281 bases of DNA from Escherichia coli (GCF_003334405.1 NZ_QOWM01000071.1), one strand, 5' to 3'; shown: positions 1 through 281, numbered from the stretch's first letter. A program made the numbers and translations. The notes: generated by a model from the letters alone, not told the origin.

Positions 1-75
1 GGTCGTTAGCTCAGTTGGTAGAGCAGTTGACTTTTAATCAATTGGTCGCAGGTTCGAATCCTGCACGACCCACCA
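1..75 (+). tRNA. lysT: tRNA-Lys (anticodon UUU), 5'-partial (tRNA position 1 lies just outside the window), genomically encoded CCA at 73-75
   Basis: Sequence matches the E. coli tRNA-Lys gene as I recall it. Cloverleaf verified by hand: acceptor 1-6 pairs with 65-70; D-stem 9-12 GCTC with 21-24 GAGC; anticodon stem 26-30 with 38-42; anticodon loop 31-37 CTTTTAA with anticodon TTT at 33-35; T-stem 48-52 GCAGG with 60-64 CCTGC; T-loop TTCGAAT; discriminator A72; CCA 73-75. E. coli has several identical tRNA-Lys genes; lysT is chosen because a 135-bp spacer to a downstream tRNA-Val fits my recollection of the lysT-valT junction. Not verified by search. Confidence 0.96.
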
Positions 76-114
76 ATCGCTAAGGTGGAAGCGGTAGTAA
101 AACGTGAAGGATAA

Positions 115-130
115 CGTTGCATGAGCAACG
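115..130 (+). other. Predicted RNA hairpin in the spacer transcript: 6-bp perfect stem CGTTGC/GCAACG with 4-nt loop ATGA
   Basis: Inverted repeat read directly from the sequence: 115-120 CGTTGC pairs with 125-130 GCAACG, loop 121-124. The only ATG in the spacer (121-123) sits in the loop. Folding in vivo is not established. Confidence 0.5.
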
Positions 131-141
131 GCCCGAAGGGC
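131..141 (+). other. Predicted short GC hairpin: GCCC-GAA-GGGC (4-bp stem, GAA triloop), directly abutting the 115-130 hairpin
   Basis: 131-134 GCCC is complementary to 138-141 GGGC. The stem is short and the loop tight, so stability is uncertain. No U-tract follows, so it is not an intrinsic terminator. Confidence 0.35.
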
Positions 142-157
142 GAGACGAAGTCGAGTC

Positions 158-175
158 ATCCTGCACGACCCACCA
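158..175 (+). repeat. Perfect 18-nt direct repeat of the tRNA-Lys 3' terminus (copy of 58-75: ATCCTGCACGACCCACCA), offset exactly 100 bp
   Basis: Direct comparison: 58-75 and 158-175 are identical. Identity stops at 57/157 (A vs C) and at 76/176 (A vs C). The copy covers the last 2 nt of the T-loop, the T-stem 3' strand, the acceptor 3' strand, the discriminator and CCA. No complementary 5' acceptor or T-stem strand lies nearby, so it is a fragment and not a folded tRNA. Confidence 0.9.
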
Positions 176-190
176 CTAACATAGTTAGTT

Positions 191-210
191 GTAGTATCCA
201 GCGTAGTATC
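191..210 (+). repeat. Two copies of GTAGTATC (191-198 and 203-210) separated by CAGC; the second copy ends at the base immediately 5' of tRNA-Val
   Basis: Exact 8-nt direct repeat read from the sequence. A third GTAGTA hexamer occurs at 94-99, and TAGT also occurs at 182-185 and 186-189. This is an A/U-rich 5' leader of the downstream tRNA. Confidence 0.6.
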
Positions 211-281
211 GGGTGATTAGCTCAGCTGGGAGAGCACCTCCCTTACAAGGAGGGGGTCGGCGGTTCGATCCCGTCATCACC
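211..281 (+). tRNA. valT: tRNA-Val (anticodon UAC), 3'-partial (ends at tRNA position 71; last acceptor base, discriminator and CCA are outside the window)
   Basis: Sequence matches the E. coli tRNA-Val(UAC) gene as I recall it. Cloverleaf verified: acceptor 5' strand 211-217 GGGTGAT with its partner ATCACC at 276-281; D-stem 220-223 GCTC with 232-235 GAGC; anticodon stem 237-241 CCTCC with 249-253 GGAGG; anticodon loop CTTACAA with anticodon TAC at 244-246; T-stem 259-263 GGCGG with 271-275 CCGTC (one G-U pair); T-loop TTCGATC. Paralog assignment (valT rather than valZ or the valU-operon copies) rests only on context and spacer length. Confidence 0.95.

Follow-up and report, generated by a model that had tools for sequence, protein, structure and literature searches.

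The structured spacer between lysT and valT of Escherichia coli contains a dispensable, short-form unit of the RtT repeat family

Does the structured spacer between two adjacent tRNA genes of Escherichia coli give rise to a stable RNA, perhaps one that sequesters small RNAs? The question was raised by a preliminary description of a 281-nt stretch of DNA, hereafter the window, in which positions 76–210 were proposed to be a stable, sponge-like by-product of tRNA processing. The window is 100% identical to the lysT-spacer-valT region of E. coli K-12 and corresponds to NC_000913 780555–780835, window position p being NC_000913 position 780554 + p. The lysT gene, annotated in K-12 at 780554–780629, scored 71.1 bits against the Rfam tRNA family. 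Because lysT ends at 75 and valT starts at 211, the spacer comprises exactly positions 76–210 (135 nt), which we divide into an RtT unit (76–175) and the 5' leader of valT (176–210). Its features, and those flanking it, are the following.

1–75, plus strand: tRNA-Lys(UUU) gene lysT without its first G, with the CCA at 73–75.
58–75, plus strand: first copy of a direct repeat (sequence repeat), the genuine 3' end of lysT.
76–102, plus strand: variable linker after the lysT CCA, with a candidate small hairpin (76–80/91–95).
76–175, plus strand: RtT-family repeat unit, short form (Rfam RF00391), an insertion/deletion unit among E. coli strains.
103–112, plus strand: CGUGAAGGAU, the 5' side of closing helix P0 (partner strand at 158–167).
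115–130, plus strand: hairpin H1, CGUUGC-AUGA-GCAACG, with a conserved stem and a variable loop.
131–141, plus strand: hairpin H2, GCCC-GAA-GGGC, nearly invariant in sequence and present in minimum-free-energy folds.
144–152, plus strand: hairpin H3, GAC-GAA-GUC (stem 144–146/150–152), variable in sequence, with pairing always kept.
158–175, plus strand: second copy of the direct repeat (sequence repeat), a pseudo 3' end equal to lysT 58–75.
176–210, plus strand: 5' leader of valT, preserved in strains without the RtT unit.
211–281, plus strand: first 71 nt of the tRNA-Val(UAC) gene valT (Rfam and K-12 annotation).

A scan of the window against all Rfam families assigned positions 7–175 to RtT RNA (RF00391) with 58.8 bits (E = 2.8e-11), above the curated gathering threshold of 45 bits, and the K-12 lysT-valT locus likewise scored 58.8 bits. 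The portion of the window homologous to RtT is roughly 111–175; the 5' third of the model was placed on the T arm of lysT and a 44-nt insertion, with non-standard pairs flagged, indicating that the window copy is a short form. The K-12 lysT operon contains five RtT matches, one 3' of each of five tRNA-Lys genes, following lysT, lysW, lysY, lysZ and, past the terminator, lysQ. Four further copies, scoring 133–137 bits, occur at the tyrT locus; one of these is annotated as the 171-nt ncRNA rttR and overlaps the small gene tpr. When the nine K-12 copies are aligned, they share the conserved stretch AACGTTGC-loop-GCAACG-GCCCGAAGGGCGAG-hairpin-GAGT(C/A)AT, after which comes the host tRNA's 3' end.

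The lysT-valT element lies in the sense strand directly 3' of a tRNA gene, ends with the 3' end of that tRNA including its CCA, as the Tyr, Arg and Pro RtT copies end with theirs, and has its core hairpins enclosed by a helix that uses this pseudo 3' end. We conclude that the spacer element is a member of the already catalogued RtT repeat and no new RNA feature. Among the E. coli literature mentioning rttR, we found no paper dealing with the lysT copies.

The preliminary description had pointed to two adjacent hairpins, at 115–130 and 131–141, and to a CCA-terminated 18-mer, and these held up on closer analysis. The first hairpin has a perfect 6-bp stem (CGTTGC/GCAACG, 115–120/125–130) and a 4-nt loop, the second (GCCC-GAA-GGGC) was recovered in both minimum-free-energy folds, and the 18-mer, ATCCTGCACGACCCACCA, occurs at 58–75 and 158–175 as two copies 100 nt apart and identical at 18 of 18 positions. 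The first copy spans the last two bases of the T loop, the 3' strand of the T stem, the 3' strand of the acceptor and ACCA; the second supplies the 3' strand of P0 and leaves a ACCCACCA tail. Overlooked at that stage were the third hairpin (144–146/150–152), the closing helix (103–112/158–167) and membership of the RtT family. The spacer was also more structured than expected by chance, with folding energies of −42.3 kcal/mol (z = −2.84) for 76–210 and −34.7 kcal/mol (z = −3.06) for 76–175.

In Lys copies, P0 is formed by CGUGAAGGAU and AUCCUGCACG, the latter from the pseudo 3' end. The sequence of P0 follows the identity of the tRNA, being CGTGAAGGAT in Lys, CCAGGGAGGAT in Arg and GGGGAAGGAT in Tyr copies. 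In the short forms (Lys and Arg), the ten bases just 5' of the core pair with the pseudo 3' end; the matching arm is CCAGGGAGGAU in Arg copies, and long-form Tyr copies have GGGGAAGGAU farther upstream. Since the arms are matched to the 3' end of each host, the closing helix varies with host tRNA identity.

We evaluated covariation in 29 distinct Lys- and Arg-linked short-form copies, using a model with P0 (103–112/158–167), H1, H2 and H3. Overall, 95% of cells were paired, as compared with 28–48% when partners were slid by one to three columns, and two-sided changes affected 27 cells, against 8.9 in shuffles, none of 500 shuffles reaching the observed value. The compensatory changes in this set were located in P0 and H3. 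Pairing was kept in 98.9% of H1 cells, where variants such as CGTCGC/GCGACG preserve the stem, and in 100% of H3 cells, with the pair 63/71 occurring as GC, AU, CG and UA. Around 50 sequence variants of the H3 segment were listed, most of which form the stem, with stems differing on both strands. As the search pattern itself specified H2 and the 3' strand of H1, their pairing is informative and their invariance is not; the invariance of H2 among the retrieved copies is thus partly a consequence of the search. RNAalifold independently returned the same four helices. These results support an RtT unit that folds into a closing helix, P0, enclosing the three hairpins H1, H2 and H3.

The linker could form a further small hairpin (76–80/91–95), whose loop carries GGUGG (84–88), complementary to the CCACC of the 3' ends; an alternative pairing of 84–88 with 170–174 appears in the minimum-free-energy fold. 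Support for the linker hairpin is weak, with only one-sided, wobble-compatible changes in the orthologs compared. We also considered the pseudo-end as a full minihelix substrate for RNase P and rejected this for the Lys copies, in which pairing covers just 3 nt of the acceptor strand. Such a substrate is resembled far more closely by the Arg copies than by the Lys copies.

A thrice-repeated GTAGTA had likewise been noted in the spacer. The three copies exist (94–99, 191–196 and 203–208) and are more than expected (0.21; 1 of 200 shuffles reached three), but they do not constitute one shared feature. The valT leader contains a small hairpin, CUAAC-AUA-GUUAG (176–188), and two copies of GUAGUAUC (191–198 and 203–210). 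The second and third GTAGTA are part of this 8-mer direct repeat, GTAGTATC in the DNA, within the last 20 nt before valT, a leader repeat found before valZ too and retained in Citrobacter and Phytobacter. The first copy lies in the variable linker and reads GATAGTA or GATTGTA in Citrobacter/Phytobacter. A single functional motif was therefore discarded, two of the copies belonging to the valT leader repeat and the third not being conserved. A REP-like reading of GTAG beside a hairpin was discarded too, the GTAG before P0 not being conserved in paralogs or orthologs.

Comparison of E. coli genomes revealed that the RtT unit is polymorphic. In strain ST95-32, the CCA of lysT directly abuts the 35-nt valT leader (equivalent to window 176–210); none of the five operon RtT units is present, each gap running exactly from the tRNA CCA to the pseudo-CCA, and the seven tRNA genes are intact. 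Segment 76–175 is also precisely missing from L108, and in one mosaic E. coli genome the unit is gone from the first two spacers and retained in two later ones. Window 40–250 was kept, at a threshold of at least 80%, in 4,267 of 5,426 complete E. coli genomes, and a 111-nt deletion allele appeared in nine of 45 evenly spaced rows of the ranked matches. The body of the unit (76–157) had matches with at least 80% coverage in 3,550 of the 5,426 genomes, no listed record having an annotated feature under the match. Accordingly, the unit in its lysT-valT form is absent or diverged in about one third of E. coli genomes.

These results indicate that the RtT unit in the lysT operon is dispensable. The two 18-bp direct repeats permit precise loss of the unit, which accounts for its polymorphism within E. 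coli, and loss probably occurred by slippage or recombination between them. Copies preceded by a similar linker occupy this position in Citrobacter and Phytobacter, suggesting that presence of the unit is old and that its absence represents loss. Natural E. coli strains with and without RtT units thus provide ready, isogenic-like material for examining RtT function.

What happens to the spacer RNA can be approached from published work on processing of the operon. According to the text of Agrawal, Mohanty and Kushner (PMC4176162), northern analyses with two oligonucleotides inside the lysT-valT spacer yielded surprisingly few intermediates in the wild type, and signals from these spacer probes (2 and 3) are assigned only to precursors in rnpA49 strains. 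From the lanes which the text describes, we infer that the spacer probes gave no spacer-only band in the wild type. In the model presented there, RNase P cuts the 5' end of each tRNA, proceeding from the 3' end of the transcript, and generates the valine pre-tRNAs; long 3' trailers of pre-tRNA-Lys are removed by RNase II and PNPase, with RNase T finishing, and RNase E acts on the long spacers only in the absence of RNase P activity.

Curated Term-seq data (LB OD 0.4, LB OD 2.0 and M63) place 3' ends at lysT +3 and +5, valT +2, valZ +3 and lysZ +3 or +4, the pre-tRNA-Lys ends (780632 and 780634) corresponding to window 78 and 80. The curated set, in which peaks within 100 bp were merged, contains no 3' end inside the lysT-valT spacer in these three conditions, including positions 780729 and 780764; the pseudo-CCA (780729) is 95–97 nt from the lysT peak, that is, inside the merging distance. 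The tyrT-tyrV RtT copy has a dominant 'orphan' 3' end at its pseudo-CCA +4, with 35,500–39,091 reads. Together with RttR being an accepted RNA, this end indicates that RtT pseudo-ends can yield discrete species. We found no promoter or terminator in the sense strand of the spacer, the sole terminator-like match being H1 on the opposite strand.

From these results, we consider it probable that the RtT unit is a dispensable structured passenger after tRNA-Lys, with an RNA that is transient in tRNA processing, as 3' trailer and 5' leader. The unit would be transcribed within the seven-tRNA lysT precursor; RNase P cleavage at 210/211 would convert the spacer into a 135-nt 3' trailer on pre-tRNA-Lys, which RNase II and PNPase, and later RNase T, would strip. 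Removed in this way, the spacer would in wild-type cells be a short-lived intermediate and not an accumulating RNA. This reading draws on observed properties (that the unit belongs to the family, that its fold covaries, that it is polymorphic by insertion/deletion and that no sRNA partner was predicted, as described below), and the element would then have no trans-acting role. Against a pure passenger, the core sequence and its compensatory pairing are conserved across genera and in Lys, Tyr, Arg, Pro and 5S contexts. Such a pattern fits poorly with pure junk and usually reflects selection on RNA or single-stranded DNA structure, and it is mainly this strong structural conservation of the core that prevents us from assigning 'junk' with high confidence.

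Alternatively, the lysT-valT copy might yield a by-product comparable to RttR. By analogy, a cut 3' of the lysT CCA, together with RNase P cleavage at valT, would release the spacer, and exonucleases would trim it to the pseudo-CCA, where P0 and the CC-containing tail would stop them; the resulting stable RNA of approximately 95–100 nt might have a function: it could titrate enzymes of tRNA processing, for instance, or modulate the stringent response, which RttR has been proposed to do. Both the processing and the stable product seem to us unlikely, though not negligibly so. The copy belongs to the same family as RttR, the tyrT-tyrV 3' end sits at a pseudo-CCA +4, the pre-tRNA-Lys ends at +3 and +5 are what an endonucleolytic cut freeing the spacer could leave, and the fold of 76–175 is stable and conserved. 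However, the text of PMC4176162 describes no spacer-only band in the wild type, no curated 3' end occurs at 780729 or 780764, the short form is devoid of the 5' half of RttR, and about one third of E. coli genomes lack the unit or have it diverged. Furthermore, when RttR was overexpressed, biofilm, motility and fimbriae were screened and no phenotype emerged (PMC4606813). The proposal of a stable by-product of tRNA processing thus stands in part: it has a precedent in the spacer's own family, RtT/RttR, but the available evidence on the lysT-valT copy itself, although indirect, is negative.

The unit could also act in cis, its fold insulating neighbouring tRNAs against misfolding in the 1.1-kb precursor, or serving as a barrier or decoy for 3' exonucleases and allowing ordered, 3'-first action of RNase P. 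RtT belongs to the cis-regulatory class of Rfam, the elements are always found in stable-RNA operons, in the sense orientation and directly after a tRNA or 5S gene, and in PMC4176162 the nascent transcript is said to be protected until complete, with secondary structure suggested as a possible reason. Nevertheless, operons with the same seven tRNA genes and without RtT occur in a large fraction of E. coli, and a stable trailer structure should hinder, not help, exonucleolytic maturation of tRNA-Lys, so we judge a role in cis to be improbable.

The distribution of the core sequence bears on the origin of the unit. A scan with the core 19-mer, using one genome per species, retrieved at least 120 stretches, some of whose GC-rich or coding matches look like chance. 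Among the matches listed, those not attributable to chance were concentrated in the Enterobacterales, where nearly all complete copies end in the 3' end of their own host gene, and the core follows genes for tRNA-Lys(UUU), tRNA-Tyr(GUA), tRNA-Arg(ACG, CCG), tRNA-Pro(UGG) and 5S rRNA. Long forms have the arrangement T-stem + TTCGA + [core] + AT + T-stem + acceptor + CCA, and the listed matches from Citrobacter, Kosakonia and Phytobacter include pseudogenes resembling tRNA-Tyr whose T loop contains the core.

This organization might be taken for what a mobile or integrative element has left behind, whether a tRNA 3' end duplicated in attL/attR fashion by a tRNA-targeting integrase or a small interspersed repeat inserted in the T loop of a tRNA gene copy. 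The duplication does run from the T loop to the CCA, as in att sites at tRNA genes; the long forms look like a core inserted between T-stem + TTCGA and AT + T-stem, as do the tRNA-Tyr-like pseudogenes; and the same core is interspersed or in tandem in other Gammaproteobacteria. Conversely, only the 82-nt structured core lies between the repeats, with no integrase, other cargo or conserved ORF, and one core would need five different target RNAs. Simple target duplication leaves the 5' arm complementary to the 3' end of each host unexplained, and the Citrobacter and Phytobacter orthologs point to old vertical inheritance at the site. We therefore find an integrative scar very unlikely.

As for the sponge, in which the spacer RNA would sequester an Hfq- or ProQ-dependent sRNA in the manner of 3'ETS-leuZ or the metZ-metW spacer, we took 14 Hfq-dependent sRNAs annotated in K-12 and scored how well the spacer pairs with them, using 3'ETS-leuZ as positive control. 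Local duplexes were scanned in 22-nt windows with unpaired probabilities, adding the opening cost of both partners. The control scored −15.4 kcal/mol with RybB and −17.4 kcal/mol with RyhB, its known partners, and −8.9 kcal/mol or weaker with the others. The best score for the spacer was −8.4 kcal/mol, net, for an 11-bp match of window 90–102 to the 5' region of MicF. Taken alone, the MicF match is equalled in only 4% of shuffles; over the 14 sRNAs, however, the best score was matched or beaten by 80% of 80 dinucleotide-shuffled spacers, and the site is not conserved in Citrobacter, where GCGGUAG becomes GCGAUAG or GCGAUUG. For most sRNAs the native spacer paired worse than the shuffles because it is tightly folded, being almost wholly base-paired in the predicted structure. 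The search against known sRNAs that the preliminary description had called for, covering these 14, thus returned no partner above the shuffled background.

The known sponges likewise derive from tRNA-precursor spacers. The lysT-valT spacer has no terminator-type 3' end for Hfq binding, and many E. coli genomes are without its RtT unit. In the portion of the Hfq-CLASH tables examined there are no entries for lysT, valT or lysW and no chimeras, and the TRIC-seq interactome preprint recovers known sponges and does not name the lysT-valT spacer in its main text. Therefore, the claim of a sponge finds no backing here, and we regard it as highly doubtful; with the structured spacer being a catalogued RtT repeat, the idea can take low priority.

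Finally, a small Tpr-like protein as in the tyrT repeat can practically be dismissed: although ORF 121–216 (31 aa) has an ATG start and the frame equivalent to Tpr stays open through 20 codons starting at TTG 117, the ATG falls in the variable loop of H1 (ATGA here; GTCA, GCCA, GTTA or GTAA elsewhere), the ORF runs into valT and the Tpr frame has no ATG, so the spacer, lacking a conserved start or ORF, was rejected as coding.

Among known systems, RttR and the tyrT RtT copies are the relatives of the lysT-valT copy, which shares with them H1 (CGTTGC..GCAACG), H2 (GCCC-GAA-GGGC) and a variable yet always paired H3, as well as a position directly after a tRNA gene, in sense orientation, and a terminal copy of the tRNA 3' end with CCA. 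They differ in size (100 nt versus the 171–178 nt of the tyr unit), the lysT-valT copy having none of the tyr unit's 5' half, with its inverted and direct T-arm copies, extra hairpin and Tpr ORF, and in the closing helix, which in the lysT-valT copy is built from another 5' arm, matched to tRNA-Lys. According to Bösl & Kersten (1991, Nucleic Acids Res 19:5863, cited in PMC3318445), RttR arises by processing of the tyrT transcript, and it has been proposed as a modulator of the stringent response, whereas no RNA product has been reported for the lysT-valT copy.

The sponges 3'ETS-leuZ and the metZ-metW spacer (Lalaouna et al. 2015, Mol Cell 58:393, cited in PMC8175672) resemble the lysT-valT spacer in their origin from polycistronic tRNA precursors and in being released by the same processing enzymes. 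However, 3'ETS-leuZ offers an accessible, strong site for RybB and RyhB, ends in the terminator hairpin of its operon with a U tail and is annotated in K-12 as ncRNA, whereas the lysT-valT spacer, almost wholly paired in its predicted fold, has no partner above shuffles, no terminator and no annotation.

Duplications left by integrases at tRNA genes also produce a direct repeat of the tRNA 3' end from the T loop through the CCA, and the pseudo-tRNA fragments at the ends of E. coli K-12 prophages are att duplications of this kind. Conversely, lysT-valT has only 82 nt of structured non-coding sequence between its repeats, and the same RtT insert is found in all the operon's long spacers as well as in other families of tRNA.

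The core also extends beyond tRNA genes. The rrnB T1-T2 segment, located 3' of 5S rRNA and carried on common expression vectors, contains the H1-H2-H3 core, and its end repeats the 3' terminus of the upstream stable RNA (AACTGCCAGGCAT); it differs in its host, 5S rRNA, and in an extra 5' hairpin (AAATCCGCCGGGAGCGGATTT), and lies below the Rfam threshold for RtT, the related 5S-linked copies that were scanned giving no score. Intergenic four-hairpin repeats of Pectobacterium, Brenneria, Alcanivorax, Arsukibacterium and Alkalimonas have the same H1-H2-H3 core and share with the rrnB element an A/T-rich first hairpin, with identity to the rrnB unit at 52–63 of about 92 aligned positions, but they show no linkage to tRNA genes and no copy of a stable-RNA 3' end. 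They are interspersed or tandemly arrayed, and in Alcanivorax 74 nt separate one copy from the next. One Brenneria copy sits just upstream of a 5S gene.

The occurrence of the core after tRNA genes, after 5S genes and as interspersed repeats hints at a common origin, of which our literature search found no account. There is a slim chance that RtT units are the tRNA-linked branch of a wider, undescribed family with a three-hairpin core, placed on the 3' ends of stable RNAs and in interspersed repeats, and that tRNA 3'-end processing could yield stable, tRNA-ended RNAs that titrate processing enzymes or other partners in the strains concerned. Since the closing helix reproduces the upper half of the host tRNA, the tRNA 3'-end machinery could process RtT units.

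The tyrT region of Citrobacter, Kosakonia and Phytobacter contains an almost full-length tRNA-Tyr-like pseudogene, with a GCA anticodon and a degenerated 3' end, whose T loop harbors the RtT core in the arrangement TTCGA[core]AT. The long-form RtT units of E. coli, namely the tyr copies and the one that follows lysQ, have the same layout as this pseudogene from the T-stem onward. Because the pseudogenes and the E. coli long forms share this arrangement, sequence comparison suggests that the RtT family arose when the T loop of a duplicated tRNA gene received an insertion.

Features of the compared loci (L-numbers are locus handles).
L006 (minus strand, ~9367), L021, L105, L119: tRNA-Tyr-like pseudogene carrying the RtT core, tyrT region.
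L002 ~1360-1364 (NC_000913 1287359), minus strand: 'orphan' 3' end of the tyrT-tyrV RtT copy, from published Term-seq.
L001 2154-2350; L023 380-1680 (Klebsiella sp.); L097 2098-2500 (Pantoea sp.): tRNA 3' end, terminator and long-form RtT.
L123 320-430 (NC_000913 4171819-4171929): RtT-type H1-H2-H3 core (GAACGTTGCGAAGCAACGGCCCGGAGGGTGGCGGGCAGGACGCCCGCC) between rrnB terminators T1 and T2.
L010, L063, L065, L066, L083, L091, L110, L113, L117: 5S-linked copies resembling the rrnB T1-T2 unit.
L028-L042 (Alcanivorax sp. 24), L079/L080 (Pectobacterium), L098/L099 (Brenneria), L087-L090 and L116 (Arsukibacterium), L111 (Alkalimonas): core-bearing repeats, interspersed or tandem.

RtT units are variably present in the lysT operon of E. 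coli. Strain ST95-32 (L124 1461-2220) carries none of the five, each gap corresponding exactly to the stretch between the unit's direct repeats. The operon of strain SCPM-O-B-8794 (L108) is a mosaic, with spacers 1 and 2 devoid of RtT and the next two containing it, and O157:H7 genomes display a third arrangement, at ~91% identity, pieced from three aligned segments. The 20 nt preceding valT (GTAGTATCCAGCGTAGTATC, window 191-210) are retained in E. coli strains without RtT, and are found nearly identical before valZ (L001 1549-1568) and in Citrobacter and Phytobacter; this segment is a conserved tRNA-Val 5' leader. Farther upstream, in the pal-cpoB region preceding the lysT operon, Rfam identifies a CpoB/ybgF thermometer element (RF02782, 119 bits; L001 1-128), which is unconnected with the findings on the lysT-valT spacer.

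Within the spacer, window 90-102 shows 11 bp of complementarity, including two G-U pairs, to nucleotides 19-30 of MicF (net -8.4 kcal/mol). This match was nominally unusual with MicF considered alone, with 4% of shuffles as good, but no longer so once the 14 tested sRNAs were allowed for, and the complementarity is not conserved in Citrobacter.

After the last tRNA-Lys gene there is a repeated unit composed of the tRNA 3' end, a Rho-independent terminator and a long-form RtT, so that K-12 has two copies of the terminator. The entire unit occurs in three or four tandem copies in Klebsiella sp. and Pantoea sp. At the tyrT locus, the tyrT-tyrV RtT copy, distinct from the one that bears the rttR annotation, has a strong 'orphan' 3' end in published Term-seq data, 4 nt beyond its pseudo-CCA. 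The published Term-seq lists have no entry at the 3' end of the rttR annotation; a possible reason is that the rttR unit is repetitive and its reads align at multiple sites.

The rrnB T1-T2 segment combines its RtT-type core with a terminal copy of the 5S rRNA 3' end, AACTGCCAGGCATCAAAT. Comparable 5S-linked copies come, among the matches listed, from Superficieibacter, Siccibacter, Pseudocitrobacter, Rahnella, Budvicia, Phytobacter and a further E. coli genome; those that were scanned did not attain the Rfam RtT threshold. The repeats of Alcanivorax, Pectobacterium, Brenneria, Arsukibacterium and Alkalimonas, for which we know of no family name, consist of the RtT-type H1-H2-H3 core preceded by a hairpin that is A/T-rich and has a CGGGAG-type loop, and show no tRNA linkage. 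Successive copies are separated by 74 nt in Alcanivorax sp. 24, and a single Brenneria copy lies directly upstream of a 5S gene. In alignments with the rrnB T1-T2 unit, these repeats have 52-63 of ~92 positions in common.
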